Part shown: one piece after another, positions 5,577 to 25,504 of the stretch
Numbering within the stretch: the stretch's first letter is position 1
Layout of the letters: each line of letters starts with the position of its first letter
NCBI GenBank assembly: GCA_046318155.1
Contig: JBKCUU010000055.1
Coordinates: 1 to 30,459, forward strand
DNA: 30,459 nucleotides
DNA from: Bdellovibrio sp.
GTDB taxonomy: Bacteria > Bdellovibrionota > Bdellovibrionia > Bdellovibrionales > Bdellovibrionaceae
Reading direction: 5' to 3'
Notes under the pieces: generated by a model
What the model saw: only the letters and a program-made list of their open reading frames with translations
Told to the model about the DNA's origin: nothing
Databases searched by the model: none
Made by a program: the position numbers and the translations under genes

Positions 5577-5720
5577 ACAGAAGCTCCTTGAGAGCGGCGA
5601 TCTTTTCGCTCTGAAAAGCCTAAGTCAACCAAATTGCCGGCTTTGCAAAATTTTAAGAGTTCTGCTGGTTCAAATAGCCTATCATATCTGAATAACGGCC
5701 TCATCACTTTAGGATTACTT

Positions 5721-6215: not shown

Positions 6216-6297
6216 CGAACTTCTGATCACCCTTGCATTGATTTCTGAAGGACCAATCGCGGCGGGCTGACTTTTTAGGATTGTGTTAAAAAGTCCT

Positions 6298-8695: not shown

Positions 8696-8710
8696 ATTCA
8701 AACAAGGCTG

Positions 8711-8980: not shown

Positions 8981-9132
8981 CTTGAGGCCCCACTTATAAC
9001 TCAAAATTCTAGTCAGCTTATGGTTTGGAGTCAAGCTTCATGCCAACATGACAACTCGGGGCCTGATCCAAAGATTACAGAAAACGGGGCTGCCTCTTGT
9101 GGAAAAACAGCTCGCGTGAGACTTAACTCCCT

Positions 9133-10053
9133 ATGAAAAACATCTTATTTGCCTTGGTTCTTTTGTCGTCGGTGATGGCCAACTCCCAATCCACGGAGCG
9201 CGATTTTAGAGCCGAAATCAGTACCGCCTTGTTGATCCAAGACCTCGATCTGTCGCAACCAGCTCGTCTGACCCGAGTTGACCTCAGCTCAGACTCAGAT
9301 GCCGACTACGTTTCGATTCGGCTCGAGCACCCACGTGCAGGTCAAATCAATTTGCTGCTTAGAGGTCCGACCGGCTTTATGAGTGCAAATCACCGTTCGC
9401 TCAGATCACTGCTTCTTGTCTCTGGTTTTTTTACCGGTAAAGAAAGCGTGCGACTCTTGGAAGCGATTCCTCGCACCGTGATTGTTGGGTATCAATATCC
9501 TTACAAAGCCGACGATTTTGCTCGAGATCCTGCCTTGATCGCGCAGTTCCTACGTCAGACTCCCGGGCAAATAGCCCTCGCCTTGCAGTGGATCTCGGGA
9601 CAACCCTGGGCCGCGCCCAAAGGTTTAATCACAGCTGGTGTGAGCCTCGGCGGACTTATTCTTCCCACGGCTTTGCACATGGCTCAAAAAATGAACGTGC
9701 AGATCCCTCGCACCGTTTTTGTTTGCACGGGCGCCCACCTCACTCCCATTTTGGAATCGTTGCTGCGCCCCTCTCTCGGAAACGCCAAGGCCCGCCAAAT
9801 CGCCATGGGTGTTGCCAACCTCACCGCCTTGCACGATCCCAAGCTGCATTTGCCCTATCTCAAAGGCTCATTTTTGAGTATTCGGACCGACCGAGACCAA
9901 GTCATTCCCGAGAGTTCGACGCTTTTGCTTGAAGATCTCTTACCCGTCGTGACCAGCGTCGTGCTGCCAGGGCCCCACATCAACCCCGACCAAACAGAAG
10001 TCATTCGCCAAACGCGCGAAACAATTCTGCGTTGGCTAAACCCAGCACCTTGA
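9133..10053 (+). CDS. Secreted alpha/beta hydrolase
   Basis: Signal peptide; nucleophile elbow GVSLGG; DQVIP (Asp) and GPHI (His) in canonical order. Confidence 0.82.
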   Translation: MKNILFALVLLSSVMANSQSTERDFRAEISTALLIQDLDLSQPARLTRVDLSSDSDADYVSIRLEHPRAGQINLLLRGPTGFMSANHRSLRSLLLVSGFFTGKESVRLLEAIPRTVIVGYQYPYKADDFARDPALIAQFLRQTPGQIALALQWISGQPWAAPKGLITAGVSLGGLILPTALHMAQKMNVQIPRTVFVCTGAHLTPILESLLRPSLGNAKARQIAMGVANLTALHDPKLHLPYLKGSFLSIRTDRDQVIPESSTLLLEDLLPVVTSVVLPGPHINPDQTEVIRQTRETILRWLNPAP

Positions 10054-10064
10054 AGGAGCACAAA

Positions 10065-10280
10065 ATGCAAAAATCCGAATCCACAAATAGCAATCAGACC
10101 GTCAGCACAAACGTGGGCATAAAAGGCGTGATTCTTTCCGCGACGTCGCGAGAGAACCTCTGCGAGCGTTTTGGCTGCTCATGGACAAGGCTGATCGAAT
10201 TCCTTGAGACCGAAGAACTACTTTCGGACAAAGACGTCAGCCTCAAACTTCTTCAACTCCAACGCGAACGCATTCACTAG
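10065..10280 (+). CDS. Small hypothetical protein
   Basis: AAGGAG RBS before ATG 10065; 71 aa. Confidence 0.55.
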   Translation: MQKSESTNSNQTVSTNVGIKGVILSATSRENLCERFGCSWTRLIEFLETEELLSDKDVSLKLLQLQRERIH

Positions 10281-10293
10281 GGTACAGCCGTCC

Positions 10294-10326
10294 GGCCGGC
10301 ACCTCAAAACCCGTGCCGCCATTTTG
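10294..10326 (+). terminator. Possible intrinsic terminator
   Basis: CGGCAC (10297-10302) pairs with GTGCCG (10313-10318), followed by CCATTTTG; long loop and weak U tract. Confidence 0.3.
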
Positions 10327-10352
10327 CAAAGTCCTTGACCCAGAGGCGCAAA

Positions 10353-11321
10353 ATGACCGGCGAGAACCTTCAAATTCAACCTAACGCAAAAGGACTGCTC
10401 GTTTGGGCAGCATTTGCCGTTTTGACTCTTTCAGCATGCGCGAAAAATGGCTACAACACGAAAAGTTTACCAAACGAAACTCCCGCGATCCCTGCACCGG
10501 TTGGCCCTGGAGAAAAACCCCTTGTTACAGCTCCCCCCGAGGCTTCAAGACGAACGGAGAAAATAGAGCCGCCGGCGCCGGAAAAAGCTGAACGAAATGC
10601 GCCGCCGCCGCCGGCACCACCGCCGCAGGCAAGCCTTGAACGAAATGCGCGTCCTCCCAATTCGGCTCGGCTTGACACCAACCCTGAACCTGAATTTGAT
10701 CCCCCTTATCGCCCTCGCGAGCCGGCTCCTCCGCCTGCGCCGAATTACCGACATGAACCCCTGTCGTGGGAGTCGGTTTCAAAACCTGAGCGCAAAGGAT
10801 GGTCGAATTTTGTGCACCAAGAGGTTGAAAAAAATTTCGAAATTTTGGACAAGGCACGAGACACCGAAAGATTTTGCCGACGCTATGAATCTTTAAGTCG
10901 CCCGGCGCGGATTAACTTTTGGGGGATGCTGATTTCTCAAATGGCTTTGCACGAGAGCAGTTGGAATCCAACCTTGAGCGTTCTTGAAACGACGATGGGA
11001 CTGGACAAGACCACCGGCAAGCGCGTCTTTAGTGAGGGTCTTCTTCAACTGTCGTATCAGGACATGACTTGGACCAGGCGCTGTAAGTTTGACTGGGAAG
11101 CCGATAAAATTTTAGGTCAACGAGATCCCAGAAAAACGATTCTTGATCCCTACCGCAATCTCGAGTGCGGCATCGAGATTATGACACGGCAAGTTCGCAG
11201 ACACCGCCGCATCGTGATGGAGAACAATGTCTACTGGGCTGTTTTACGTGAAGGCGGAAAATACAATAAAATTCCGGCCATCGCGATGGCAGTTGCGATA
11301 CACCTGAAGGCCTGCAATTAA
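10353..11321 (+). CDS. Lipoprotein with a Pro-rich linker and a lytic transglycosylase (SLT) domain
   Basis: Lipobox LSAC; Pro-rich linker; SLT motifs ALHESSWNP (catalytic Glu), SEGLLQL, LDPYRNLECG. Start uncertain (10335 TTG or 10353 ATG). Confidence 0.85.
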   Translation: MTGENLQIQPNAKGLLVWAAFAVLTLSACAKNGYNTKSLPNETPAIPAPVGPGEKPLVTAPPEASRRTEKIEPPAPEKAERNAPPPPAPPPQASLERNARPPNSARLDTNPEPEFDPPYRPREPAPPPAPNYRHEPLSWESVSKPERKGWSNFVHQEVEKNFEILDKARDTERFCRRYESLSRPARINFWGMLISQMALHESSWNPTLSVLETTMGLDKTTGKRVFSEGLLQLSYQDMTWTRRCKFDWEADKILGQRDPRKTILDPYRNLECGIEIMTRQVRRHRRIVMENNVYWAVLREGGKYNKIPAIAMAVAIHLKACN

Positions 11322-11340
11322 GCCAGGCCTTCGGGACTTC

Positions 11341-11682
11341 TTAGCAGCCCGAACCTTCCATGACAATTTCATGCATCACGCGGTTTTGCGTGTCGATGAT
11401 CATGAGTGATGGAAAAATCACTCCGCACTGAACCGCACCCTTAGGGCTTACGCCGTAACGAACAGACTTGATCGAGCGCAGGACTTGAAAAGCCCGTTTA
11501 GTTTTGAGCATGCCCTCAGCAAATTTAATTTTATCGGCATCGGTCTGGTCGCCCTCTTCAAGAGCCGTTTCAAGCGCGCCTTCGATGTAGCTCTCACGCA
11601 GAGCAAATTCACGGAGCATGTCTTTGGCCTCACCAGGAGTCACTGTGTGAGTACTCGAACCCTCCGCAATCGAGGCGATCAA
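11341..11682 (-). CDS. Hypothetical protein, probably 5'-truncated
   Basis: Protein-like frame ending ...EGSGC*. The frame stays open upstream of the TTG to an in-frame TGA, with no good RBS or ATG. Confidence 0.45.
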   Translation of the reverse strand: MIASIAEGSSTHTVTPGEAKDMLREFALRESYIEGALETALEEGDQTDADKIKFAEGMLKTKRAFQVLRSIKSVRYGVSPKGAVQCGVIFPSLMIIDTQNRVMHEIVMEGSGC

Positions 11683-11906
11683 ATCAGCCGCTGCGGCAAT
11701 ACGCTCAGCAATTGCAGGGGCTTTCGCCCTTGTTTGTTCCAGGCATCAGTAATGCCTTCGCTCAAAAAAGAGAAAGACATAATGAAATATTATAGATGCG
11801 TATTACGCATGATTACGGAGGGACGGACCAGACCCGGATCACGCGAAACTCGAACTTAAAATATATTTTGAATTAGAATAAATGCACGTTGAGCTTCGCC
11901 CCGCTT

Positions 11907-12473
11907 TTAATGACGAGGGCAGCGGCCTTGGCTCTGGCACTTCATCAACAGGCCACGAAGATCCATCAGCTCACCCAACGTGTTTTCGAGCTCGATATCA
12001 AAGCCGTTGGCCTTGGCACCTTTTTGCGCGATCGCAACATATCTTTGAACGTTGCGAAATTGACGGGTGTCGTATTGGTGGTTGTCACCATCTTGCATCG
12101 AGATTTTACGACCCAAGTTTTTTTGAAAACGTTGACGCTGATCGTGAGCCTTGGCGCGAGCGCCCGAGAAGCTCTTCCAGCATTTCACTTCGCCCACCAA
12201 GACGGCGTCTTGAGAACGCTTGTCAAAGATGACAACATCAAGCTCACCAATCGTGCGGCTGCTATCTCCATAAACGATTCCATTGACGATGTCGTAATCT
12301 TTTGCGGGGTAGATTTTTTCAAGCTCGATCACGGCTACTTTTTCGCAAACCATACCGATGATGTCGTAATTCGCACCTGACTCTTTGAGCTCTTCAAAAA
12401 GCTCAGAAACAGGAGCCGCTGACACGAGGTTTGAAAACGAAAATACCAAGAGAAAAAGCGACATGCTTTTCAT
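11907..12473 (-). CDS. Secreted PD-(D/E)XK-fold putative nuclease
   Basis: GGAGGA RBS; signal peptide MKSMSLFLLVFSFSNLVSA; GMVCEKVA ... IGELDVVIFD ... LVGEVKCW gives the E / D / ExK active-site pattern. Confidence 0.75.
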   Translation of the reverse strand: MKSMSLFLLVFSFSNLVSAAPVSELFEELKESGANYDIIGMVCEKVAVIELEKIYPAKDYDIVNGIVYGDSSRTIGELDVVIFDKRSQDAVLVGEVKCWKSFSGARAKAHDQRQRFQKNLGRKISMQDGDNHQYDTRQFRNVQRYVAIAQKGAKANGFDIELENTLGELMDLRGLLMKCQSQGRCPRH

Positions 12474-12481
12474 AAAAAACG

Positions 12482-12550
12482 TCCTCCGTAGACACTCATT
12501 TACGGCGAGTGGTAGAAACGCCAGGCCCTATCCCCGGCTTATACTTAGAA
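12482..12550 (-). promoter_or_regulatory. Purine-family riboswitch aptamer (guanine-type, C74), copy 2; probable translational OFF switch
   Basis: Minus strand reads UUCUAAGUA UAA GCCGGG GAUAGGG CCUGGC GUUUCUAC CACUCG CCGUAAA UGAGUG UC UACGGAGGA. C74 equivalent at 12491. The 3' strand of P1 contains GGAGGA (12487-12482), 8 nt before ATG 12473. Confidence 0.93.
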
Positions 12551-12744
12551 ACCTGGCCCACGAGATAAACGAGATCTTAACAAGAGGCTAGCGACTTTTG
12601 TGCGTTGTGCGTCAAGACAGGCGCGCCCGAATCCACGAAACCACGGGGGCTCTCGGTGATAATGCTTGCCTCTCACAATCATGATATCATTTTGATCAAA
12701 GATTTTGCCGGTATCAACACTCGACCCCACCCGTTGGATCAACC

Positions 12745-13932
12745 ATGAAAATCCGTGTCCCGTTAAAGCAAGAAATTAAGCGCCTCAGTTATTTGTTTGT
12801 CTTACTCTATCTTGCAACGATCGCTCTTCTTGCAGGCCTTTTTGTCTTGGGTCATCACAACGATCAGGTCCGGCTTGCCAGCTCTTATTCGAGGGCCTCG
12901 AAAGACAGTCTTATTACTCTCGATTTGCGCCAGGCAATTGTGATCCTCAATCCAGCCTTGCAAGATGGCTTTACGGCCATCGCAATTCGCGACCACCGCG
13001 AGACGTTAAGAGCGGGTCTTCCCAAAGAATCGGCGCTGGAAGACTCGGGTGATCCCTTTGACGTCAGAATCCGCATGAACATTCAAGTGGGTAATTCCGG
13101 CACCGCTGCAGAAACGATTGCGATTTTGGATTTTCACTACTCGATTTTGACCCAGCTCTTGTTCGCCGCGATCGCCTCGCTGCTGATGTCAGGGGTTGTT
13201 TTTTTCTTTTTTAGGCGCGGTATCCGCAACCTTGAACGCAAACATTTTGATGATCTTGAAGCCCAAAAAACAGAACTCCTGGCGTGGGTCGCTCTGCAGG
13301 TCTCGCATGACATGAAGAGTCCCTTGGGAGTTTTAACGACGCTGGCCCAAACGGCAGGACCCGGGCTTCCCGAACCGGACCGGCAGAAGATCATCGAGGC
13401 CTCGAAGCGAATCTCTGACATTACTGGTGATCTCCTGAGTAAAGCACGCGGCCTGAGTCAGCCTTTGGCCGCGCCTGTGGCCAGGTCGCACATGCGTGAG
13501 CTTCACATCTCAGATTCGATGAACCGCATTACGGCCGAAAAAATTGCCGAGTACAAAGGCCGAGCCGGCCTTGAAATCGAAGCCTACATCCCAACTGACA
13601 TTACAGTTTTGTCACGACTGAGTGAGAAAGAGCTGGGCCGAATTATTTCAAACATGGTGAACAATAGCGCCGAAGCCTTGCCTGAGGGTGGTTTGATCAA
13701 AGTCGTTCTTCGCGAAAACAAAACCAATGTGAGCGTTCAAGTTTCTGATGACGGCAAGGGGATGACGTCCGAGATTTTAGAAAAGGTGGCAACGGGCGGT
13801 TTTTCGAATGGCAGCGGGCATGGACTGGGACTCAGTCATGCGCGCGCCGCGATCGAAGAAGCGGGCGGAAAGCTCGACATTATTTCAACCCCGGGTGCTG
13901 GAACCATCATTACGATTCAACTACCCAAGTAA
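12745..13932 (+). CDS. Membrane sensor histidine kinase (orphan)
   Basis: Two TM helices; H-box SHDMKSPL; N-box NMVNNSAEA; DDGKG; GHGLGL. Confidence 0.92.
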   Translation: MKIRVPLKQEIKRLSYLFVLLYLATIALLAGLFVLGHHNDQVRLASSYSRASKDSLITLDLRQAIVILNPALQDGFTAIAIRDHRETLRAGLPKESALEDSGDPFDVRIRMNIQVGNSGTAAETIAILDFHYSILTQLLFAAIASLLMSGVVFFFFRRGIRNLERKHFDDLEAQKTELLAWVALQVSHDMKSPLGVLTTLAQTAGPGLPEPDRQKIIEASKRISDITGDLLSKARGLSQPLAAPVARSHMRELHISDSMNRITAEKIAEYKGRAGLEIEAYIPTDITVLSRLSEKELGRIISNMVNNSAEALPEGGLIKVVLRENKTNVSVQVSDDGKGMTSEILEKVATGGFSNGSGHGLGLSHARAAIEEAGGKLDIISTPGAGTIITIQLPK

Positions 13933-14036
13933 GCAGGGGCTTTATTTTAAGAGGGCACTTCAAGTTTGTCGCGCTTGTCGCGCTGCGCAGTCTTTCTCAT
14001 GAGCCGTGATGGTGGGAGTGCCAAAGCAAATCACTC

Positions 14037-14291
14037 TTGCTAGACTTTTCAAAAGTGGGCTCGATAACTGTCGTCCTCGTCATGATGTTCATCACTCGAG
14101 TCAAGGCCCTGAAGAGCGGACAAATCCCCATGGATTATTTTCGAACCTACTCGATGACCATCGACATTCCCGCCGCCGCTCTCCAGGCCCAAAATCACTT
14201 CAAAAATCTATTCAAGGTCCCCGTCTTGTTTTATGCCGGATGCCTGACGGCGATGAGCTCTTTTTACTCTCCAAGCGCTTCGCGAACTTGA
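14037..14291 (+). pseudogene. MAPEG-family membrane protein fragment
   Basis: VVLVMMFITRVKALKSG...QNHFKNLFKVPVLFYAGCL resembles MAPEG N-x-x-NLFE-x-PVLFY, but the Glu is Lys here (AAG). The C-terminal helices are missing and the start is poor. Confidence 0.65.
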
Positions 14292-14566
14292 GAAAAAAGA
14301 ACGGCGTCGTCTGGCGCTGGGCTTGGCGCGACCTGATTCAACAAGAGCTCTGCGGGTGTTCGCATGTTATCAACGGCACGTTTCATATCCGCGAGGATCC
14401 TCGTCTTTTCATCGACAAGAATAGCTTGTTGAATTTCGCCGACAAAATCACGTCCCATGGCATACCCTTGCTGACCAACAAGTCGCCCCGCATGCTGCTC
14501 ATAATACGAATTCGTTGGCCATTCTCCCGGGTTTTTTGATAAAAGAAAGCATGAAGAACCAATCAA
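14264..14566 (-). CDS. Hypothetical protein or 3' gene remnant
   Basis: Protein-like helical composition in the last ~65 codons; no clear start. Confidence 0.3.
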   Translation of the reverse strand: MIGSSCFLLSKNPGEWPTNSYYEQHAGRLVGQQGYAMGRDFVGEIQQAILVDEKTRILADMKRAVDNMRTPAELLLNQVAPSPAPDDAVLFSQVREALGE

Positions 14567-15111
14567 TTTTTATTTTTGTGCTTCCACTTTTTTTGAGCCT
14601 TCAAGGATGTCAATCCATGCCAACAAATCTGCCTCCTCAGCCCACGGTCGAACATGTCGAAATTCCCCGCTTTATGGGAACCTGGTATGTGATTGCGACA
14701 ATCCCAACGATGTTCGAAACAGGCGCCCACAATGCCGTCGAAACCTACACGTGGAATGAATCTGAAAATCGCGTCGACGTCGATTTTAGATTTCGCAAAG
14801 ATGCTTTTGACGGAAAAGAAAAAGCCATTCCACAAAAAGGTTTTATTTACAATCAAACCACAAAAGCCGAATGGCGCATTCAACCGTTTTGGCCGTTGAG
14901 CTTTGCCTATCTGATCGTCGACCTTGCGCCGGATTACTCGGATACCATCATCGGCGTCCCCAACCGCAAATATGTTTGGATCATGGCACGGCAGCCGCAA
15001 ATGCAGGCCGACCGCTACCAGGCGCTCGTGACTAAGGTTCAAACTCTGGGGTACGACATCTCGAAGCTGATTCTAGTGCCGCAGCAACCATTATCCGAAC
15101 GGCAAAAATAA
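14551..15111 (+). CDS. blc: Bacterial lipocalin (Blc-like lipoprotein)
   Basis: Lipobox LQGC; RFMGTWYVIA, APDYS and VWIMAR lipocalin motifs. Confidence 0.9.
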   Translation: MKNQSIFIFVLPLFLSLQGCQSMPTNLPPQPTVEHVEIPRFMGTWYVIATIPTMFETGAHNAVETYTWNESENRVDVDFRFRKDAFDGKEKAIPQKGFIYNQTTKAEWRIQPFWPLSFAYLIVDLAPDYSDTIIGVPNRKYVWIMARQPQMQADRYQALVTKVQTLGYDISKLILVPQQPLSERQK

Positions 15112-15156
15112 GCGATCGAAATGAGATGGTCCCGGCCTGAAGATCTCGAGCCAGGG

Positions 15157-15798
15157 CTAGTGCGGCTGCTGAACAAAAAGAAAATAGTCTTTTTCGTTGT
15201 AGCGACGAGCAAAGAAGTAGAGCTCGTTGGGTTTTTTCATTTTTCGCTTTGATTCACGAATCGCCAAAGGAATGAGGCACTCGGTCGTTGTCAGGCGCTT
15301 GAGATTCTCGCAGGCCTCGGGCACGAGCTCCTGACCCGTAAACGGGACCCAAGTCAGCGTAAAAAAAGGCCGCCCTAGCGGACGCAGCTTTTGATCAATA
15401 AACGGATTGGCCCGAAGCTCGTGCGCCTGAGCCGAATTGACCAGGAGCCAACAAGGTGCGGGGCATTGACGAAGCTGCTCGAGTGTCAAGGCTTCGGCAT
15501 CTCGAAGGACCGTCACCGTTTTATTAAAAGTCCCCTCGTACCTGGCCCGAGTGAGCGCCATGGTTGCCGTCGCTTCACCAGACTCGGGAGTCACGCCCCA
15601 GAGAATGTAGTCGGCATTTTTGAATTCTGAGTAAAACCGAGTCACAAGTCCGTAAGCAATGTTTTGATGATCGGGACTAATCATCGACGGCGCAATCAAG
15701 GGCTCTGATCGCATACTAACGCCTCCGATGGCCAGGTAAGCCATGCACGCCGAAACAATCAGAAAGCCAAAAACAAGAAGTGCCCAGACCTTTTTCAT
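15157..15798 (-). CDS. Hypothetical exported or membrane-anchored protein
   Basis: 213-aa ORF with an N-terminal hydrophobic helix and Cys pairs. Confidence 0.75.
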   Translation of the reverse strand: MKKVWALLVFGFLIVSACMAYLAIGGVSMRSEPLIAPSMISPDHQNIAYGLVTRFYSEFKNADYILWGVTPESGEATATMALTRARYEGTFNKTVTVLRDAEALTLEQLRQCPAPCWLLVNSAQAHELRANPFIDQKLRPLGRPFFTLTWVPFTGQELVPEACENLKRLTTTECLIPLAIRESKRKMKKPNELYFFARRYNEKDYFLFVQQPH

Positions 15799-15866
15799 GG
15801 GCCGAGGTCTAACACCCGATTCGTGATTTGTGAATCAGACGGCGCGGCAAAAGTCGATGCCCCCTG

Positions 15867-16211
15867 TTAGCTGGCAATTTTATAAAGGGTTCCAGGGCCC
15901 GCACCGGTCTTCTCAAGGCGAAACTGCTGGACACCCCAAGCATCCAAGCGCTTAAAGGAGGTGACCGAGATCCCGAGCGTTTTCGACGCTTCGGCCGAAG
16001 TAAAGTATTGTCCAGGGCGATAAACTTGACCCAACTCAAGCAGCCGAACAGACTCAGCGCTCGGAGCCCCGTGGGCTAATGCAATGCGAACTCCAAAAAC
16101 TCCTGTGATCTTGATCGAGTAGTGACCCCTGTCTTCAACAATTTCGATCGGAATTTGATGAGCCTCAAGCCATTCGCGTGTTCGCCAGATGAGCTGGTGC
16201 ACCCGGGTCAC
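15867..16211 (-). pseudogene. C-terminal winged-HTH fragment of a probably larger regulator
   Basis: RVHQLIWRTREWL...GHY resembles the end of an OmpR-type wHTH, followed by FTSAEASKTLGISVTSFKRL...GAGPGTLY (second wHTH). An in-frame TGA lies just upstream of the GTG, with no RBS. Confidence 0.5.
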
Positions 16212-16506
16212 TTGCGCATTCTTTCAATGAGGGATGGGCAGCAAGGAAACGCAGCCGATTACACTCTCCCGTTAAGCTTATCAGCCTCTGCCACGGCTGC
16301 GGCACCCGAATAAATGCAATCCCTAGCTACCAGCTGCAAGCGCGGCACTGGCGACGTGATGATGACCTGCCCGCGCAGGCGTTTTCGAGCAGCAATTTGA
16401 CTGGTCGCTCTGAACGCCACTTGACTTGCCCCGGTGCGGGCTTCCATTCTGCCGGTATAAAAACATTCTTATTGGAATTTGAGTGTTCCCGAAACAAGCT
16501 CACTTC

Positions 16507-17319
16507 ATGTCAAAACTCAATCTTGAAAAAATCAATCCGTCTCAATACCCCCTCGTCAAAGATAAAGAAGAGGCACTTAAACTCACGGACGGTCTTCAAA
16601 AAGAACTTTACGACCTGCTTTATCTGATGTTTGCGCATGGTCACTACTCCTTGCTCATTATTTTTCACGGCATCGATACGGCTGGCAAAGATGGCAGCGT
16701 GCGGCATATTTTTTCGGGCGCAAACCCCCAGGGGCTTCGGGTGTTCTCATTTAAAAAACCAACAGATGAAGAGCTGCGCCACGACTTTTTGTGGCGTTGT
16801 CATCGGCATACACCCGAAAGTGGCTTGGCCACCATTTTTAACAGGTCCTACTATGAAGAGGTCACCACAGTCCAAGTTCACCCCGAACTTCTTAAACGAC
16901 AATTCATTCCAGACGAACTCTTGAAGAGACCTGATTTTTTTCAACGGCGCTATCAGCGCATTAATGATTTTGAACTGCTGCTCTCCGAAAAAGGCACGAT
17001 CGTCGTTAAGTTTTTTTTGCACATTTCAAAAGACGAACAAAAAGAGCGAATTGATGCTCGCCTTGCAGACTTGAGCAAAAACTGGAAGTTCTCGGTCGAC
17101 GACGTCAAAGAGCGTAAGCTTTGGGACAAGTACATGATGGCATTTCAAAAAATGCTCAAAGCCACATCGACAACGCATGCCCCGTGGATTGTCGTTCCGG
17201 CTGATAACAAATGGTATCGCAACTACATCATCTCGAAAACTTTGGTCGAAAACCTCAAAGAACTGAAGATGAAATTTCCTAGAGCCAAAAATTTGAGGCA
17301 ATCTGACCCATTTCCTTAA
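16507..17319 (+). CDS. ppk2: Polyphosphate kinase 2 family protein (polyP:nucleotide phosphotransferase, class III-like)
   Basis: Walker A GIDTAGKDG; SFKKP...HDFLWR; FNRSYYEEV; KFFLHISKDEQ; WKFS; APWIVVPADNKW. Confidence 0.93.
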   Translation: MSKLNLEKINPSQYPLVKDKEEALKLTDGLQKELYDLLYLMFAHGHYSLLIIFHGIDTAGKDGSVRHIFSGANPQGLRVFSFKKPTDEELRHDFLWRCHRHTPESGLATIFNRSYYEEVTTVQVHPELLKRQFIPDELLKRPDFFQRRYQRINDFELLLSEKGTIVVKFFLHISKDEQKERIDARLADLSKNWKFSVDDVKERKLWDKYMMAFQKMLKATSTTHAPWIVVPADNKWYRNYIISKTLVENLKELKMKFPRAKNLRQSDPFP

Positions 17320-17434
17320 AACGTGGGTTCTTCTGACCCTTGTTTGCCTCAGAGCGCGAACCTGTTCGACTTCGATTCGGGCCACTCTTTGCAACGTCAG
17401 CGACGCGACCTCAACTTAAACTCAATGGAGTCTC

Positions 17435-17821
17435 ATGAAAACTTACGTTGTCTGGCTCAATTCAAAGAATGCACAGATTTTTAGGCTCGATCCAGCTGGT
17501 GTCGACAAATTGACCGTCACGAAAAAGGTCAAGGAATCGAGGCATCCACAGTATGTTGAAGACAAAGATTTGGGCTCTTCCGAGTTTTATCGCGATGTGA
17601 CGACAAATCTGAAAGAGGCGGATCAAATTCTATTGATTGGCCCCGGGCTCGCGAAAAATCACTTTCAAACTTATCTAACGACTCATCAAACCCACACCTT
17701 GGCCAAAAAAGTCGTCGGTCTCGAAAAGTTTGAAAGCGATAAGCATAAATCGGACAAGCAATTGCTCGCTCGTGCCCACAAGTTTTTTAGAGCTTACGAT
17801 CTCTTTCACAATCCTATTTAA
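17435..17821 (+). CDS. eRF1-domain-2-like / host-attachment-family small protein
   Basis: GGAG RBS; VVWLNSKNAQIF ... FYRDV ... ILLIGPGLAKNHF pattern. Confidence 0.7.
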   Translation: MKTYVVWLNSKNAQIFRLDPAGVDKLTVTKKVKESRHPQYVEDKDLGSSEFYRDVTTNLKEADQILLIGPGLAKNHFQTYLTTHQTHTLAKKVVGLEKFESDKHKSDKQLLARAHKFFRAYDLFHNPI

Positions 17822-18755
17822 TGTGGCAGTGCCTCGCAGCCGGCAGCGACTCGATAAGGTCGTGAGCCGTCAGGCCGATCACTCCTCCATTTTTGGTGGC
17901 GATCAAATCACCTGCCCGGCCGTGTATGAAAACTCCACCGACAGCGCTGTGATAAGGGTCGAACCCTTGCGCGAGCAAGCCTGACAAAAGACCTGTGAGA
18001 ACATCACCCATGCCTGCGGTGGCCAAACCCGCGTGACCCGTGGGATTTTGATAACAAGAACCGTCCGCATCGGCGATTAAAGTTTGAAAACCCTTCAGCA
18101 CAACGATGCAGCCACAAGCACGTGCCAGTTTTCGCACCAGTTTCAATCGATTTTTTTGGACCTGTTCTGACTCTAAACCCATAAGGCGTCCCATTTCACC
18201 CGGGTGAGGCGTCAAGATTGTAGGCGCTTTGCGCGGCAAAAGGAGCGCGCGCCCCTGATCAGGCTCTTGCGCCAAAAAATTGAGCGCATCGGCATCAAGC
18301 ACCAAGGGTCCCGCATATCGCATCAAAAATTTTTTGAAGAACACGCAGGTCTGCGGCTCCATGCCAATCCCCGGTCCGAAAGCGACGGCCGTCGCTTTCA
18401 AGGTCAGCTTGATGGCCGCCTCAAGGGAGGACGAGCGAAAGTATCCGCTTCCACCATCCGGCAAAGTTTTGATGATCACCGAGGGGTAGAGGCGGCTCTC
18501 GACCGAGAATCGCACTTGCGCGGGAACGACAAGAGTCACGTACCCAGTCCCCGATCGCATCGCGGCGTTTGCACTCAAGATAGCCGCGCCCGCATAGTGA
18601 ATGGATCCAGCAAAAATGACGGTGTGGCCAAACGTAGCCTTATTAAAATCGGGTTCGTTGCCTCGTGGAGGAAACCACCGCTTTAAGTCGAGGTTCGATG
18701 TCACTCTTGTTTTTGTGGCGTCATAAGAAAGTTCTCGTCTTTGTTTCATCGACAC
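17814..18755 (-). CDS. nnrD: ADP-dependent NAD(P)H-hydrate dehydratase (YjeF C-terminal domain only)
   Basis: NKATFGH; AGS..YAGAAIL; GPGIG; VLDADAL; ILTPHPGEM; VVLKG; LATAGMGDVLTG. Confidence 0.93.
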   Translation of the reverse strand: MSMKQRRELSYDATKTRVTSNLDLKRWFPPRGNEPDFNKATFGHTVIFAGSIHYAGAAILSANAAMRSGTGYVTLVVPAQVRFSVESRLYPSVIIKTLPDGGSGYFRSSSLEAAIKLTLKATAVAFGPGIGMEPQTCVFFKKFLMRYAGPLVLDADALNFLAQEPDQGRALLLPRKAPTILTPHPGEMGRLMGLESEQVQKNRLKLVRKLARACGCIVVLKGFQTLIADADGSCYQNPTGHAGLATAGMGDVLTGLLSGLLAQGFDPYHSAVGGVFIHGRAGDLIATKNGGVIGLTAHDLIESLPAARHCHIK

Positions 18756-18807
18756 TCAAGCTAGCATAGAACGATCCGCCCGTCTTACTTGATTTTCTGA
18801 AGACGAG

Positions 18808-19575
18808 CTAATCTAGAATCGCATACCAAAAGAGTGCCTGCACGACTAACCCGCCCAAGATCAAAAGTCCCAGCAGACTCCACCACCATTGCTCAAAATA
18901 AAGTCCCGTGGCCAGTGTTAAAAACCCAACGAGCCCTAAACTCACCTTGCCCGCGCTGTTCATAAACGGCAAAGCCGCCCGTTTTCGAACAGCGCTGGCG
19001 ACTGAGTTCGGCATCGATACGTGGTCCAGGAATTTTCCGAGATTTGTGGCAAATTCATCAACTCGATTCCAATCCGTCAAGTCGTAATTCTTTTGAGTAT
19101 CCGTCGGACCACCGGAGAGTCGGCTTTTTCTGCGCATGATGAGCCGAAGCCACCAAGAGTACTCAAGGTAATTGATGGCACCCGCAAACGAGTCCTCGAT
19201 TTGAGGATACCATTGCGACCGATTATAAAATGAGTTTCGCAAAGCTTGGCCTGCCTCTTCGGTCTCACGCGAAGGCTCAGCCGCACTTAAGCTCACCGAA
19301 AAAAAAGCCGAGGCTGGACTTTTGATCTTGTCCTTATTGTTCAACAACCAACGCCTGAGACGAGAGCTGTAATGACCGATGTAAAGCGGGGCCCCAATGA
19401 CCACGAGGTCCCAAACCGCGGGCCACTCAGAATCATCGATGGGATCACAAATGTTTTGAACGCGAAAATAAGAGGCGTGTCCATTGAGCTTGTGCGCGAG
19501 ATGGCTCCGAATGTGACGCGCAATTTTTGCTGTTTGCCCGTGCGTCGTCGCATACAGAATGAGGATGTTTTTCAT
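18808..19575 (-). CDS. hemG: HemG-like flavodoxin (menaquinone-dependent protoporphyrinogen oxidase family) with a C-terminal membrane hairpin
   Basis: ILILYATTHGQTAKIA; GAPLYIGHY; AFFSVSLSA; FAGAINY; YDLTDWNRV. ATG 19575 overlaps the stop of the upstream kinase. Confidence 0.8.
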   Translation of the reverse strand: MKNILILYATTHGQTAKIARHIRSHLAHKLNGHASYFRVQNICDPIDDSEWPAVWDLVVIGAPLYIGHYSSRLRRWLLNNKDKIKSPASAFFSVSLSAAEPSRETEEAGQALRNSFYNRSQWYPQIEDSFAGAINYLEYSWWLRLIMRRKSRLSGGPTDTQKNYDLTDWNRVDEFATNLGKFLDHVSMPNSVASAVRKRAALPFMNSAGKVSLGLVGFLTLATGLYFEQWWWSLLGLLILGGLVVQALFWYAILD

Positions 19576-20843
19576 TGCACAGCTCTTCGTTCTAAAATGA
19601 ACCAAAAAGTAGATCCACCGCCCACAACACTCTCAAATCCCACTTGGCCCCCATGCCGCTCAACCAAATCTTTGGAGATTGCAAGTCCCAGCCCCGAACT
19701 TTGCTCGCCCAATTTAGGCAACACACTTGTGCATCCGTACTCGGTAAAGAGTTTCGCACATTCTTCTTTTGGAATTCCGGGTCCCTGATCTTTGACCGAA
19801 AACTTCACGCCATCTTGAACATTCGAAACCTCTAATTCGACTCGAGAACCTGAGGGCGAGAACTTAAATGCATTTGAAAGGTAGTTCTCAAGAACTCGGC
19901 GAATTAAATGCGAATTCATCCGAAAATTGCTCGGAAGCGACTCGGATCGAATCAATAGAAAATTCATTTTCTTTAAATGAGCCATGGCCTCGGCTTGTTC
20001 GCACACACCTCTGAGAAAGCTCGTCAAGTCAACAAATGTCCCTGGAGCCCTCGAAGCGACAACTTTGGCTTGTTGGAGCTCGCAGAGTTCCTCGACGAGG
20101 CTCATCATGTTTTCACTACTACGCGATAAGATCTCAAATATCTTATCTTTTTGCGGGTCCGAGATTTGCTTTTGGTATTGATCTTTGAGGATCTCAACAT
20201 AGCCTTTAAACACATTCAGCGGAGACTTCAAATCATGCAGGACTGTGCAATATCTTTTCTCGAAATCGCGCTGACTTTGAAGACGCTGATCTCGAAGGCC
20301 ATAGTCGATGATCATGGAGATCTCATTGGAGACCTGCGCTAACAGTTCATTATCAATGGGTTGGTACTGAAAGGGTTGCTGACTCGAAAAAAAAACAAAC
20401 CCAACGGGCCTACCGGTCGAGAAAAGCGGCAAGGTGAGATTGCTTCGGACTTGATCTAAAAGTGCCAAACGCGTCGACTCCGAGTTTGGATGATCCACGT
20501 AGTAGGCCTCCAGATCGTCGATAATTCGGGGTTGTTGATTTTCAAGTAACTGAGCTAACGAACTGCCTTCGAGAGGCGCCTCATAGTTCGCAACGAGGTT
20601 CTTGCAGTTCATTTTTGCTTTCGTCCAGATGAGTCGAACTCGGGCTCGGTCCTCGCTGAGGATGGCAATTCCGATGCGGTCAAAGGGAACGAGTGGAACC
20701 AAATGATCAAACAAGTCTTCCAAGATAAGGTCGAAGGGCACTCCGCCCACGATCTCCTGATTGAGATTTTGAAAGAGCGCATGGAGCTGGCTCTCATCCC
20801 TGAATTTAAGATTTTGACTCGATGTTGCCCGTAAATCTTCCAT
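19572..20843 (-). CDS. Cytoplasmic GAF-domain sensor histidine kinase
   Basis: GAF domain (PFDRIGIA...PRIIDDL...VRSNLTLPL); H-box LHDLKSPL; NYLSNAFKFS; DQGPGI; GLGLAI. Confidence 0.92.
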   Translation of the reverse strand: MEDLRATSSQNLKFRDESQLHALFQNLNQEIVGGVPFDLILEDLFDHLVPLVPFDRIGIAILSEDRARVRLIWTKAKMNCKNLVANYEAPLEGSSLAQLLENQQPRIIDDLEAYYVDHPNSESTRLALLDQVRSNLTLPLFSTGRPVGFVFFSSQQPFQYQPIDNELLAQVSNEISMIIDYGLRDQRLQSQRDFEKRYCTVLHDLKSPLNVFKGYVEILKDQYQKQISDPQKDKIFEILSRSSENMMSLVEELCELQQAKVVASRAPGTFVDLTSFLRGVCEQAEAMAHLKKMNFLLIRSESLPSNFRMNSHLIRRVLENYLSNAFKFSPSGSRVELEVSNVQDGVKFSVKDQGPGIPKEECAKLFTEYGCTSVLPKLGEQSSGLGLAISKDLVERHGGQVGFESVVGGGSTFWFILERRAVQ

Positions 20844-20926
20844 TTTAACCCCGCCCAGATAGGCTGAAGAGCCCTTCAATTCAGAAGCCTATTCCAAAGC
20901 GCTCCTGGAGCATTTGAGGTCTGAGG

Positions 20927-20992
20927 TGGGACATAAAGTATTTATTGTTTGATATCGTAGGGCAAAATGTCCCAGCAAGTGCCTCTGTCACA
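20927..20992. promoter_or_regulatory. Cluster of TG(G/T)GACA / TGTC(C/A)CA sites, candidate activator-binding (UAS) region
   Basis: TGGGACA 20927-20933, AGGGCAAAATGTCCCA 20959-20974 and TGTCACA 20986-20992; same half-site as the palindrome at 23591. Confidence 0.45.
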
Positions 20993-21010
20993 TCTTGCTT
21001 CTCAAGTTTT

Positions 21011-22126
21011 CTAAGAGGATAGGGGCAGCTTCAGCACAAAGCAGGTATTCGTAGAGGCGTCATCGTAGGCAAGCTCGGCACCATTGCGCTCAGCAAGAGT
21101 GCGAGAAATCGTCAGACCGAGCCCCGTGCCAATTCCGACCTGCTTGGTCGTGAAAAATGGCCGGAACAATTTTTTCTGCACCTCGGGAGCCAAACCCAAA
21201 CCCGAATCTGAAACTCGAATTTCGACGTGTGCACCAGCAATAGTGGATTCAACACGAACCCAGGGATCTGTCGTTCCGAGAACAGCATCGTGAGCATTGT
21301 TCACAAGATTGACTAAGATTTGAAAAATCTCGGTCGGCCTGCACTTGATCAACAGGTCAGGATCATGCAATTGAATTTCAAACTTAATCTTGTTGCCCTG
21401 CAATTTAGCCCGCAAGATATCAACAACTGAGTCAAGTAAATCTAGCAATGTCAGTTGTTGCGAAGACTCGGCGTCCCCACCATGGGCAAGGGACCGAACT
21501 GTGCGCATGATTTTTTCAATGCGACGACCGGTCAAACCAACCGAATCGACCATAGAACGAATCAAAGCCAAATCAGGGGACGGTCGCTGCAGCGCAGATT
21601 GAATCATCTCGGTGCGCCCGAGAATGACGGCAAGTGGGTTGTTGATTTCGTGGGTCAGTGCGGCCGAGAGCTCTCCAAGTGCTGACATTTTCGAGGATGC
21701 AACGAGCTTCGCCTGTTGATCAAAAATCGTTTGCTCCGCACGCTTGAGGGCCGTGATATCTTGCCGGATCGACAGGTATTGATAGGGTGCTCCATCGGTA
21801 TCAGAAAAAGGCACAATTGTTGTTTGAACCCAGTAAAGACGGCCCGATTTCGTGCGGTTACAAATCTCTCCCCGCCAAGATTGCCCCTTAGAAATTGTCT
21901 TCCAAAGCTCAGTAAAAAAAGTTTTGTCATGAGCCCCGGAGTTTACAATTCGGTGATTTTGCCCAAGGAGTTCCTCCCGGCCATACTCCGAAATTTCGCA
22001 AAACTTATCGTTCACGTAGGTGATTCGCCCAAGGCGGTCCGTGGCGGCAACGATCGCCGCTTGATCAAGCGCATGCTTCTGATCTTGCAGTTCCTTAAGT
22101 AAATGAAGAGGTTCTCGGGCAGCCAT
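21011..22126 (-). CDS. Cytoplasmic PAS-domain (NifL/Aer-like, probably FAD-binding) NtrB-type histidine kinase
   Basis: PAS ITYVNDKFCEISEY...QNHRIVNSG...LWKTI...WRGEICNR...YWV; H-box THEINNPL; NLVNNA; FFTTK..GTGLGL. Confidence 0.92.
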   Translation of the reverse strand: MAAREPLHLLKELQDQKHALDQAAIVAATDRLGRITYVNDKFCEISEYGREELLGQNHRIVNSGAHDKTFFTELWKTISKGQSWRGEICNRTKSGRLYWVQTTIVPFSDTDGAPYQYLSIRQDITALKRAEQTIFDQQAKLVASSKMSALGELSAALTHEINNPLAVILGRTEMIQSALQRPSPDLALIRSMVDSVGLTGRRIEKIMRTVRSLAHGGDAESSQQLTLLDLLDSVVDILRAKLQGNKIKFEIQLHDPDLLIKCRPTEIFQILVNLVNNAHDAVLGTTDPWVRVESTIAGAHVEIRVSDSGLGLAPEVQKKLFRPFFTTKQVGIGTGLGLTISRTLAERNGAELAYDDASTNTCFVLKLPLSS

Positions 22127-22209: not shown

Positions 22210-23594
22210 GTGGGTGAAATCGTTGTCATTGATGATGACCGTGAAATGCGGCTCATGGTTCAGGATCATCTGAGTGCATCTGGGTACAGGATCCGCAGCT
22301 TTGAAAGTCCTCGCGAAGCCTTGAGTACCCTGCTCGCCAATGCCAGTGAGCCCATTGCAATCTTGACAGATCTGCAAATGCCCGAAATGAGCGGCCTCGA
22401 GCTGATCAAGCGGGTCAAGGGCAAGTACCCGGAGCTTCCGATCATCGTCATGACAGCCTTTGGGAGCATTGAATCAGCTGTCGATGCCATGCGAAAAGGC
22501 GCTTTTGATTACATGACGAAACCCTTTAAGCTGAACGATTTGAATTTTACGATTGAACGAGCTGTGGCAATGTCAAACCTCGCCAATGAGAACAAAGTTC
22601 TTCGAGCCGAACTTAAGAAAACCTCGGGCAAAGGACAACTCCTCGGAAAATCTAAACAAATGAGGAGTTTATTCGACCTGATCGAGCGCATTGCGCCAGC
22701 TCAATCAAGCATTCTCGTCACCGGTGAGTCTGGCACCGGTAAAGAAATGGTTGCCCGCACAGTTCATGATTTGAGTGGCCGCCCCAAAGACCGCTTTGTC
22801 GCGATCAACTGCACGGCCATTCCCGACTCCTTGCTTGAAAGTGAACTCTTTGGCCATGCCAAGGGCTCGTTCACAGGCGCAGACCGCCGAAAAAAAGGCC
22901 TCTTTGAAGAGGCCGAAGGCGGCACGCTTTTTCTCGATGAGATCGGTGACATGGATTTGAGTCTTCAAGCCAAAATCCTTCGTGTTCTGCAGGAGCGAAA
23001 AATTCGTCCCGTTGGGGAGAACAAAGATATCGATATCAATGTGCGGGTGATCGCAGCGACGCACAAAGACCTCAGAAAGGCGATCAGCGAGGGGCTGTTT
23101 CGCGAAGACCTTTACTACCGCTTAAACGTGATTCCGATCCAGATCCCCCCTTGCGCCATCGTAAAGAAGACATCCCGTTGCTGGCTCAATCGTTTCTCGA
23201 GAAATATGCAGCGCTCAATCGATCACCTGCCCGGGGCTTTTCTCCGGGTGCTTTGTACCTTTTGATGGATAATCCCTGGCCCGGGAACGTCCGCGAGCTC
23301 GAGAATATGATCGAGCGATTGGTCGTCATGGCCCGTTCGGCTCAAATCGAAGAGTCGGACCTTCCCTCCCCTGAGAGTGCCAGCACTGAAGACTTTTATG
23401 GCAAGATCACTCAAGATTTGCCGAACCTTGAGGTTCTCGAAAAACGCTACATCCAGTTTATTTTGGCAAAAGTCGGCGGTAAAAAAGACCGTGCCGCCCA
23501 GATCTTAGGAATCAACCGCCGAACACTCTACCGGAAGGAGCTCGACTACGACACCTCTTTGGCCGAGGGGAGCGCCGGCGATGGTGAAACGTGA
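22210..23594 (+). pseudogene. NtrC/ZraR-family sigma54-dependent response regulator, frameshifted at a C6 run (may be a sequencing error)
   Basis: REC domain (IDDD, TDLQMP, MTKPF); GESGTGKE; GSFTGA; FLDEIGD; FREDLYYRL. The continuation LRHRKEDIP...WPGNVRELEN...HTH is in another frame. One extra C at 23145-23150 restores IPPLRHRKEDI. Confidence 0.9.
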
Positions 23595-24216: not shown

Positions 24217-24269
24217 ATAGGGCCAGGAGTGTCCATCGATAACCGATGACTCAAAACCATGGAGACTTT

Positions 24270-24662
24270 ATGAAAACGAACTTTACTTCACTTTTTGTCG
24301 CCGCCGCTTTTTTGATGGGAGCGCCAGTCGCTATGGCTGCCGAACCCGCTCGCGAAGTCATGATCGGCATTTCGGATGCTTATGTTCCTGCGGGCTTTGA
24401 TTCAAACTCGGACGCGTTTGTCGTCACGAATGGCGTATTTCCAAATGGTTGCTACCGCTACTCTCGCGCCGAAGTGACCCATCAAGATGACAGCACCCAT
24501 ATCGTCAAGAGCTACGCAACCGTGCAACCAGGCATGTGTCTGATGGTTCTTGTCCCCTTTACAAAAGAAGTTCTCATTGGAAAACTTCAGAAGGGTTCAC
24601 ACACCATTCGCTTCTTGAGCGGAGATGGCACTTACCTCGAAAAAAATCTTAAAGTTGAGTAG
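24270..24662 (+). CDS. Secreted small beta-rich protein with one Cys pair
   Basis: GGAG RBS; signal peptide MKTNFTSLFVAAAFLMGAPVAMA; NGCY ... MCLMVLVPF. Confidence 0.8.
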   Translation: MKTNFTSLFVAAAFLMGAPVAMAAEPAREVMIGISDAYVPAGFDSNSDAFVVTNGVFPNGCYRYSRAEVTHQDDSTHIVKSYATVQPGMCLMVLVPFTKEVLIGKLQKGSHTIRFLSGDGTYLEKNLKVE

Positions 24663-24685
24663 AAATTTTAATCGAAACTTAGAGA

Positions 24686-24742
24686 CGGCTGCAAATGAGC
24701 CGAGAAGGCGGATCGGGGCGTGGTCTGAAAGGCCCACGCCCG
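24686..24742. other. Two hairpins between the convergent 24270 gene and the Lys/Ala micro-ORF
   Basis: CGGCT/AGCCG (24686-24702) and GGGCGTGG/CCACGCCC (24716-24741, 8 bp perfect); no clear U tract on either strand. Confidence 0.55.
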
Positions 24743-24748
24743 AAGATA

Positions 24749-24805
24749 CTACTTCTTCTTAGTTGCAGCTTTCTTAGTCGCTTTTTTTGCAGCTTTCTTA
24801 GCCAT
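24749..24805 (-). CDS. 18-aa Lys/Ala-rich microprotein MAKKAAKKATKKAATKKK (histone H1-tail-like)
   Basis: GAGGAG RBS (24817-24812), 6-nt spacer, ATG 24805, TAG 24751-24749; below the ORF-track size cut-off. Confidence 0.75.
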   Translation of the reverse strand: MAKKAAKKATKKAATKKK

Positions 24806-24845
24806 GGATTTCTCCTCGTAATCTTCGGCATCATTGCCTGTGGAA

Positions 24846-24874
24846 ATCATGATTCGAAAAACTCACCACGTCAA
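24846..24874 (-). promoter_or_regulatory. Putative sigma70 promoter for the microprotein transcript
   Basis: TTGACG (24874-24869) - 17 nt - CATGAT (24851-24846); predicted start near 24839. Confidence 0.6.
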
Positions 24875-25066
24875 TCAGCGGGTCTAGTTCTTTGACCAAG
24901 CTGATTTTTGCAAGTATCTTGGGCTTCGATTTCATGCTTGATGTATCCACCTTTCGAACGGGTTTGGCTCCATTGCAAAAGCGAAAGCGTCGCGAGCGGA
25001 GCAGGGCAGGGCCCAGCACGACTTCCACTAGACGACAGCGAAGTGTTTGAGTTAGCATAGTGAGAT

Positions 25067-25504
25067 ATGAAAACTTCAAAGTCCTTGAAACTCATGACCA
25101 TGACAGTTCTTTTCTTGTTTCACCCCATGCTCGATGTGGGTTCTTTCGCACACGCAAGAAAAAGATCGCCGCCCAAGGCCTACAGCTTTTTGACCGAGCA
25201 AGGAAAGGCCTCGCAAGCCGAGTGCGATGGTGAGTGGAAGATTCCCCGTCGCTTGAGCAAAAATCATGAGCTGAAGAAAGCGCCTTCTTATATGGGATCC
25301 GAACTCGAGGTTCCAGTGGTGAAGTCCGAAGCCAACACCGAAATTTGGAAGCATTACTTTAGAGCGAAACCCTTATGCAACCAGGCTCTCGCAAACACGC
25401 CGTCGTCCCGAAAAATCCCTGAAAAAGAAGTTAAAGCCGAGCTCCCACCTGAAGAAGATCCAGAACAAACCGAGCCGACCGAACAGCCGGAGCCTCAGGA
25501 GTAA
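25067..25504 (+). CDS. Hypothetical, probably exported protein with an acidic Pro/Glu tail
   Basis: 145-aa ORF with a hydrophobic N-terminus ending AHA, two Cys and a PEE/EP-rich C-terminus. Confidence 0.65.
   Translation: MKTSKSLKLMTMTVLFLFHPMLDVGSFAHARKRSPPKAYSFLTEQGKASQAECDGEWKIPRRLSKNHELKKAPSYMGSELEVPVVKSEANTEIWKHYFRAKPLCNQALANTPSSRKIPEKEVKAELPPEEDPEQTEPTEQPEPQE

Follow-up and report, generated by a model that had tools for sequence, protein, structure and literature searches.

The window, that is, the whole 30,459-nt stretch of Bdellovibrio sp. DNA that was analysed, carries a small gene with its own signals on the minus strand. The sequence-only reading had listed a promoter, a small 5' hairpin, an RBS, an 18-aa Lys/Ala ORF with a twofold repeat and a GC-rich 3' hairpin for this locus, and all of these were found in the letters. 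The promoter TTGACG-N17-CATGAT is present letter for letter at 24874-24846, with the -35 box at 24869..24874, in a position equal to that in the extra copy of a congeneric genome, and the -10 box at 24846..24851, where A2 and T6 are retained at a spacer of 17 nt. The predicted 5' UTR (24806..24840, counted from a predicted start site) contains a 4-bp hairpin at 24838-24827 with a pairing probability of 0.55-0.73 and the RBS GAGGAG at 24812..24817, 6 nt ahead of the ATG. The ORF at 24749..24805 encodes the peptide MAKKAAKKATKKAATKKK (9 K, 6 A and 2 T), and a 15-mer within it is found at 24801 and again at 24777. Without Met1 the peptide has a calculated mass of 1.8 kDa, a pI of 10.9 and a charge of about +9.

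Two hairpins are located at the 3' end of the gene. The first is short and pairs the last Lys codons with bases 3' of the stop codon, which lies in the loop (24742..24758; probability about 0.35 in the window transcript). The second is the GC-rich 8-bp hairpin at 24716..24741 (pairing probability 0.80-1.00), which occupies the position of the family terminator and has no U-tract; terminator calling gave no terminator there. A further 3' hairpin named by the sequence-only reading corresponds to 24701-24687, where 4 bp can be formed by inspection but are missing from the predicted transcript folds. The next gene (24246..24662, plus strand) is convergent as described and encodes 138 aa with a signal-peptide-like start by eye, and a divergent ORF of 145 aa is found upstream at 25067..25504 on the plus strand. 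Both neighbours lie outside the unit, Pfam gave no match for either, and the convergent one does not adjoin the congeneric extra copy. The 3' gene is convergent both in the window and at the main locus of this genome, which agrees with the earlier statement that the peptide is not a leader peptide.

Two consensus promoter sites were found between 24400 and 25200, the window promoter among them, compared with 0.5 +/- 0.7 in shuffled sequences. A CTAGACC box at 24881..24887 on the minus strand, 6 nt 5' of the -35 box, is a possible regulator site of the extra copies of the gene. It occurs in four of the five known extra copies and in one of 117 main copies, a weak and post hoc contrast in which the motif was derived from the same four extra copies that it scores. 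A scan of 182 family genomes gave no additional locus with this box, and the form CTRGACC is not a general promoter element of this genome, in which two sites were found together with TTGAC.

A six-frame scan of the whole 2.75-Mb genome for short Lys/Ala ORFs gave two matches, the window ORF and an ORF of 23 aa on contig C58 (G000:C58:46746-46817, L002:1483-1554, minus strand) that has TTGACG, an AGGAGG RBS and a canonical terminator. The C58 copy is located between mlaE-mlaD, with mlaD being convergent to it, and a divergent pair of membrane genes (L002:1572-2851, plus strand) that lies outside the known tad cluster and is called TadB/TadC-like here because of a weak T2SSF match in one member. 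Since relatives have the peptide gene at the C58 position, this position is the main locus, which makes the window gene an extra copy. Judged from these alignments and positions, the window gene is a relocated second copy of a gene found throughout the order Bdellovibrionales.

A congeneric genome contains a main copy as well as an extra copy. Similarity between the latter and the window copy extends from about 24847, adjoining the predicted start site of the window transcript, through the stop codon, with 89% identity over 93-96 nt. The window ORF differs from the 25-aa congeneric extra copy by two silent changes, no replacement and one in-frame gap of 21 nt. The -35 box and the 3' hairpin lie at the same offsets in both copies, whereas the terminator U-tract is present in the congeneric copy and missing in the window, and the genes flanking the two are unrelated. 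Further extra copies were found at unrelated sites in two other genomes, two in G065 and one in G015. These were met incidentally, so that the five extra copies in four genomes are a minimum, and their unrelated sites point to a compact, self-contained unit in which the gene is duplicated and relocated. The congener also has a second tandem copy (L009:1687-1818, plus strand) that is seemingly interrupted just past its start. The interrupting element is repeated close by and has one further occurrence in this genome (G000:C34:13535-13638); it may be a small mobile repeat.

Conservation of the main locus was surveyed in 280 genomes of the order that are at least 90% complete, with a profile of the TadB-like neighbour serving as anchor. 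The anchor gene was found in 271 of them. A total of 130 anchor loci were examined among the best 150 matches (the 30 highest-ranked ones and 100 of the 120 that follow), a ranking that favours the window's own family, and the survey left out 19 more genomes of the well-sampled genus g10 as well as G065, in which the gene is present. The peptide gene was found in 126 of 127 informative loci spanning nine families. The 130 loci contain 117 ORFs of up to 70 aa and seven of 71-143 aa (124 complete ORFs); in two loci the ORF start is cut by the contig end, three are uninformative as the contig stops earlier, and one is an absence. In the genome with this absence (G263), a strict pattern that misses known long members found no copy elsewhere. 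Such strict sequence patterns undercount the family, detecting it in 42 of 357 genomes and, for a pattern that also catches longer proteins, in 64 of 156.

The 117 short main copies encode 22-69 aa with a median of 27, and main copies as a whole range from 22 to 143 aa (18-143 aa with the window copy), a length set by the number of repeats. The repeat units are of 4-5 aa (KK-AA, KK-AT and KKK-AT). The short members consist of 56% K, 25% A and 13.5% T without any D or E, and within the family as a whole Lys is exchanged for Arg to the extent of up to 15% R. GGAG or GAGG precedes the ATG in all 117 and a terminator-like hairpin was found in 116. TTGAC occurs within 140 nt upstream in 112 main copies (TTGACG in 109) compared with 14.5% of random windows, and an xAxxxT hexamer is present at a spacer of 16-18 in 111 of those 112. 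Between 80 close pairs of equal length, which share ancestry and are therefore not independent, codons differ by 354 silent and 96 replacing changes. Conservation of the RBS and of the K/A ORF in relatives, on which the sequence-only reading had placed weight, is thus confirmed, and these sequence patterns indicate that the family is a protein-coding gene selected for charge and composition, with repeat number left free.

In 80 of the 117 main copies (for example L024:1453-1512), AACAAC repeats were observed in the 60 nt preceding the ATG, where they are a possible translation enhancer; the window copy has none. A functional tie of the peptide to its Tad-like neighbours was also considered and found no support past synteny, as Bd3798 and Bd3799 of B. 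bacteriovorus HD100 are transcribed at about 10 RPKM compared with 6,803 for the gene beside them. The Tad preprint, in the part available, does not name the peptide-gene locus.

Similar stand-alone peptides were found at 120 or more loci in a scan of GTDB contigs. The scan pattern requires MAKK and a KK-stop end, so that this shape is not in itself a finding. Among 120 listed loci, 106 have an in-frame ORF of up to 50 aa with at least 40% Lys, 12 have a longer or different ORF and two have none. The 106 loci hold 111 ORFs, 89 of them with an RBS-like motif and 62 with a terminator-like hairpin. Going by the titles of the records, more than ten phyla are represented, with members in Bacteroidota, Alpha- and Gammaproteobacteria, Verrucomicrobiota, Planctomycetota, Acidobacteriota, Gemmatimonadota, Nitrospirota, Dormibacterota, Omnitrophota, Sumerlaeota, Methylomirabilota, Patescibacteria and Bdellovibrionota. 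Their flanking genes are unrelated to each other (71 of 120 flanking ORFs scanned). Convergence of low-complexity peptides can explain the likeness across phyla as an alternative to common descent. Tandem pairs of such genes were seen in Acidobacteriota and in a gammaproteobacterium (L082:1501-1835, L149:301-566 and L179:301-522). At one locus in a record titled Bacillota (L106:1501-1620), the leader and peptide match the loci of genus g10; this is probably a mis-binned contig, and taxon labels of single MAGs need care.

This class of genes is missing from protein collections. None of 16 family and class peptides of up to 143 aa was found in a collection of 15 billion proteins, which may filter low-complexity sequence, in agreement with the earlier expectation that standard gene callers miss the gene. 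The window peptide is below the 20-aa limit of the profile tools and longer members were used instead; 13 short and 6 long peptides gave no relevant match in Pfam and NCBIfam up to an E value of 1, a test weakened by the HMMER bias filters. One member of 40 aa had no match in the PDB up to an E value of 10. A protein homology search with a 44-aa member returned 13 weak matches among 1,668 candidates (best E value 0.09); one of the 13 is named 'hypothetical protein', and three of six inspected resemble mis-called family members. The literature searched, mostly outside subscription journals, contains no description of such a gene and does not mention motifs of the MAKK type.

The main copy does, however, probably have a locus tag in B. 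bacteriovorus HD100. Bd3800 is annotated as a hypothetical protein (NP_970506.1; NC_005363 3,670,617-3,670,748; Table S1 of PMC3627812). It has 132 nt encoding 43 aa at 30.3% GC, and 885 nt separate its low end from that of Bd3799. Across 19 loci of genus g10, the distance between the same anchor and the ATG of the peptide gene is 883-889 nt, and the genes have 102-138 nt at 28-33% GC. The 780-nt Bd3799 flanks Bd3800 on one side and the genes toward Bd3803-3807 (mla-type ABC transport) follow on the other, and the region comes after cystathionine genes, as does the main locus of the congener. Bd3800 therefore shares neighbours, offset, size class and GC content with the main-locus family and occupies the syntenic locus with 43 aa, whereas the window copy has 18 aa and lies elsewhere. 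From its position, length and GC content Bd3800 is probably the HD100 main copy of the family.

The transcript of Bd3800 was reported at 6,803 RPKM 3 h into prey and at 270 RPKM in attack phase (PMC3627812), corresponding to 887 and 118 reads; the RPKM values are reproducible from the library sizes, with one library for each condition. In the same published table, the genes flanking Bd3800 range from 10 to 218 RPKM, the histone Bd0055 has 5,041 RPKM 3 h in prey and 11 in attack phase, and HU-alpha has 768 and 14 respectively (PMC3627812). Ten of 11 rows for ribosomal protein S genes are at 1,852-21,395 RPKM in growth, with a second S1 gene at 296, and all 11 seen are at 7-59 RPKM in attack phase (PMC3627812). 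Division in prey occurs at about 3 h. Through the identity of Bd3800, the family is probably transcribed strongly late in growth inside prey. High expression, as proposed by the sequence-only reading, is accordingly probable for the main copy of the family.

No full text searched mentions the Bd3800 tag. It was not found in ten supplementary files of PMC10627809 or seven of PMC12546842 and is missing from the attack-phase promoter table, and in the supplements of PMC6561027 both Bd3800 and the control tag Bd0055 are absent. The published nucleoid proteome was obtained from a LysC/trypsin digest searched against the GenBank proteome (PMC10627809), a digest that would reduce the window peptide to pieces of 1-4 residues and could not see it. 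Absence of Bd3800 from proteome tables is expected for this reason and lends no support to any reading.

The sequence-only reading had proposed a polycationic microprotein similar to an H1 tail and made from a stand-alone gene. The gene, its composition and its own signals are borne out, and we infer that it is translated and that its product binds a polyanion non-specifically. Our preferred reading, at a probability of roughly 0.55, is that the peptide is a tail-only polycation, akin to histone H1, whose charge is predicted to let it coat DNA. The gene would give rise to a small Lys/Ala/Thr polycation without fixed structure and would be strongly transcribed late in growth inside prey. Many copies of the peptide would neutralise and bridge DNA backbones without sequence specificity as progeny nucleoids recondense, helping chromosome condensation, and the window copy, if expressed, would add dose or a different timing. 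The eightfold range in length, the exchange of Lys for Arg and the lack of acidic residues argue for a coat on a long polyanion rather than for a fixed pocket. We favour DNA as this polyanion because of the precedents of Hc2, AlgP and SWIB-4 and because the same tail is found on the SWIB protein of this genome. Two further reasons are the high transcript level at the time of division and the lack of an accepted explanation for attack-phase compaction, the cause of which is described as open in bioRxiv 10.1101/2025.09.24.678257, PMC11318664 and PMC10627809.

A close likeness in pattern is to chlamydial Hc2 (hctB) and to Hc2-like proteins such as Bordetella BpH1, which also have repeats of two basic residues with Ala/Thr/Val spacers and a length set by a free number of repeats (PMC2848022). 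Lys-rich pentamers of Hc2 condense the chlamydial nucleoid late in the cycle, and Hc2 itself is expressed late in a life cycle that has two phases and includes a condensed nucleoid (PMC2848022), to which the high transcript level of Bd3800 at 3 h in prey would be an indirect parallel. The published account also reports that Hc2 binds RNA better than Hc1 and that BpH1 knock-outs grow normally (PMC2848022). Repeats of two basic residues with Ala, Val, Thr or Pro and an even charge were found in the family, in units that are not strict pentamers. Hc2 has 165-237 aa with conserved flanking regions, whereas the Bdellovibrionales family has 18-143 aa and repeats only, so that the length of about 150-240 aa and the conserved flanks of Hc2-like proteins are absent, as is any match of the short and long peptides to a profile model. 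The resemblance of the family to Hc2 is one of pattern and no homology is claimed.

The C-terminal tail of H1 and the KPAA tails of Pseudomonas AlgP and PhaF are likewise Lys/Ala-rich polycations that are predicted to be disordered, and KPAA peptides of AlgP bind DNA in vitro (PMC9239181). Unlike these proteins, the family has no globular or N-terminal domain, and its gene is free-standing with its own promoter and terminator. The winged-helix globular domain of linker histone H1 was found in no member; Lys and Ala of the H1 tail are present, with Pro near zero in the order and at 1% in the cross-phylum class. Plastid SWIB-4, which has an H1 motif, compacts nucleoids (PMC4154389), and the 117-aa SWIB protein of this genome begins with the same N-terminal MAKK..ATKKAA tail, to which the peptide corresponds without the SWIB part. 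The histone Bd0055 is another chromatin candidate that is small and basic, and its transcript reaches a similar level in growth phase; it differs in having a histone fold with a solved structure (PMC10627809). The family acts, on our reading, like an H1 tail or Hc2 yet belongs to neither, having no globular domain, no profile match and a far smaller size.

A Lys/Ala/Thr tail of this kind was also observed at the start of three longer proteins (L003:1188-1538, minus strand; L005:1435-2088, plus strand; L007:1426-1908, plus strand). In order, these proteins of this genome are the 117-aa SWIB protein, a peroxiredoxin (AhpC-TSA) and a protein of 161 aa whose C-terminal half is acidic and for which Pfam gave no match.

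Several observations count against DNA coating. The nucleoid is most compact in attack phase, yet Bd3800 mRNA then drops 25-fold, and the protein would therefore have to persist. The growth level of Bd3800 is also within the range of ribosomal protein S genes, and the neighbours give no chromatin clue, being TadB/C-like and mla genes here and unrelated genes among the 71 ORFs elsewhere. The same tail is carried by peroxiredoxin and by ribosomal-protein-like ORFs, the latter named by eye. The stronger RNA binding of Hc2 and the normal growth of BpH1 knock-outs also speak against this reading. Phyla that are not predatory have similar genes too, and a predator-specific role is therefore not required.

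With the DNA-coating reading, the family becomes an overlooked candidate for the unexplained and extremely compact chromosome of these predators. With Bd3800 the candidate is placed in a strain that is amenable to genetics, and its transcript level exceeds that of histone Bd0055, so that an open question of Bdellovibrio chromosome biology becomes directly testable, with the mechanism being our proposal. The main copy probably has a locus tag already and is undescribed in the literature searched; new here are the syntenic denominator, the range of 22-143 aa, the recognition of the window copy as a paralog, and the probable assignment of the highly transcribed Bd3800 to the family as its main copy. 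A bolder version, which we offer tentatively as possible rather than probable, is that the family (Bd3800) would be the missing protamine-like condenser of the attack-phase nucleoid, produced in large amounts shortly before division and escaping LysC/trypsin proteomics. A class of free H1 tails spread across phyla and forming an unrecognised prokaryotic chromatin layer would then have in this family its first tractable member, with extra copies tuning dose or timing.

The peptide might instead bind RNA or ribosomes as an accessory small basic ribosomal protein, an RNA chaperone or a translation damper, which we consider rather unlikely. The near-universal occurrence of the gene in the order as a single copy would suit such a role, as would the growth-phase level of Bd3800 in the range of most ribosomal protein S genes, the K/A tails on ribosomal-protein-like ORFs of relatives (named by eye) and the reported repression of translation by Hc2 through RNA binding (PMC2848022). 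In attack phase, however, Bd3800 at 270 RPKM exceeds all 11 ribosomal protein S rows seen. Small basic ribosomal proteins have a fixed length and a solved ribosome-bound relative, whereas length varies eightfold in the family (18-143 aa), unlike what a fixed ribosomal pocket would hold, and PDB chains gave no match. Ribosomal operon context was not found in the order, and elsewhere one of the 71 flanking ORFs encodes a ribosomal protein.

A separate explanation concerns the window copy only, namely that it is a decaying duplicate which is no longer usefully expressed, the family itself being real; this is compatible with DNA coating for the family. The window copy is the shortest in the order at 18 aa against 22-143 aa, it lacks the terminator U-tract and has flanks differing from those of the congeneric copy, and extra copies, sought incidentally, are known in just four genomes, with the second copy of the congener being interrupted. 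Its promoter boxes, RBS and frame are all intact, however, the changes relative to the congeneric copy are silent with the gap in frame, and members of 18 aa also occur in other phyla. We consider decay unlikely, and the window copy matters mainly as an entry point to the family.

More doubtful still is an explanation in which the peptide has no chromatin role of its own and serves broadly as a counter-ion to polyphosphate or further cytoplasmic polyanions, or as a reserve of lysine and acetyl groups. A composition of pure charge and the spread of similar peptides over more than ten phyla beside unrelated neighbours fit this explanation, and the H1-like tail of AlgP positions polyphosphate granules (PMC9239181). 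On the other hand, AlgP is described as joining the granule to DNA through its N-terminal domain, which the peptide does not have (PMC9239181), and the 71 scanned flanking ORFs include no polyphosphate gene.

The sequence-only reading had also enclosed the RBS and ORF in an 8-bp long-range helix. The two segments, CCGAAGAT at 24828-24821 and ATCTTCGG at 24747-24740, are complementary, yet in the predicted transcript of 161 nt they pair with a probability of no more than 0.001. By chance, an 8-bp match of the two regions is expected in 3.8% of cases (20,000 shuffles of the 3' region) and a match anywhere within the 161 nt in 48% (5,000 shuffles). A comparable long-range 8-bp match was found in five of 117 family loci and ATCTTCGG is absent from the congeneric extra copy, so that the helix, unlike the RBS and ORF, was not found to be conserved in relatives. 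The overall folding of the transcript is not unusual (z = -1.71, with 12 of 200 shuffles equally stable), and Rfam gave no match up to an E value of 5. A weak hairpin at the stop codon was observed family-wide and accounts for part of ATCTTCGG better than the long helix. At main-locus ends its energy is -4.7 kcal/mol for own sequences and -4.0 for swapped ones (n = 102 distinct; 0 of 5,000 permutations), at cross-phylum ends it is -4.75 against -4.17 (n = 105; 1 of 5,000), and the effect, small in size and inflated by kinship among loci, is missing in Lys-ending control genes of this genome (110 of 119 used; 869 of 5,000). A structured or dual-function RNA whose helix would hide the RBS and ORF or sense translation of Lys codons is therefore very improbable and already largely refuted: it has in its favour the complementarity in the window letters and the stop-codon hairpin, and against it the near-zero probability and rarity of the helix, the ordinary folding, the lack of an Rfam match or conserved structure, the silent third-position variation with Arg substituting for Lys, the missing downstream operon to regulate, and the absence of the ORF from published sRNAs.

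Eight attack-phase sRNAs have been published (Figure S1 of PMC3627812) and none of the eight sequences contains the window ORF, by which identity of the transcript with one of them is rejected. In several of these published sRNAs, including APsRNA5, APsRNA2 and APsRNA7, an RBS and an ATG can be made out by eye, and they may encode small proteins.

Elsewhere in the window, a sigma-54 response regulator at 22210-23594 (plus strand) is split over two frames (22210-23265 and 23151-23594), which is a frameshift or an assembly error. Two purine-riboswitch aptamers were also found on the minus strand at 2021-2118 and 12469-12566, with a score of 51 bits, which exceeds the Rfam gathering score. Both overlap or adjoin the beginning of a small-protein gene with a signal-peptide-like start; the gene at the first aptamer (1538-2047) has a weak HNH_5 match (E value 0.001) and the gene at the second (11907-12473) is nuclease-like by eye. 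The aptamers might be of a deoxyguanosine-sensing variant.
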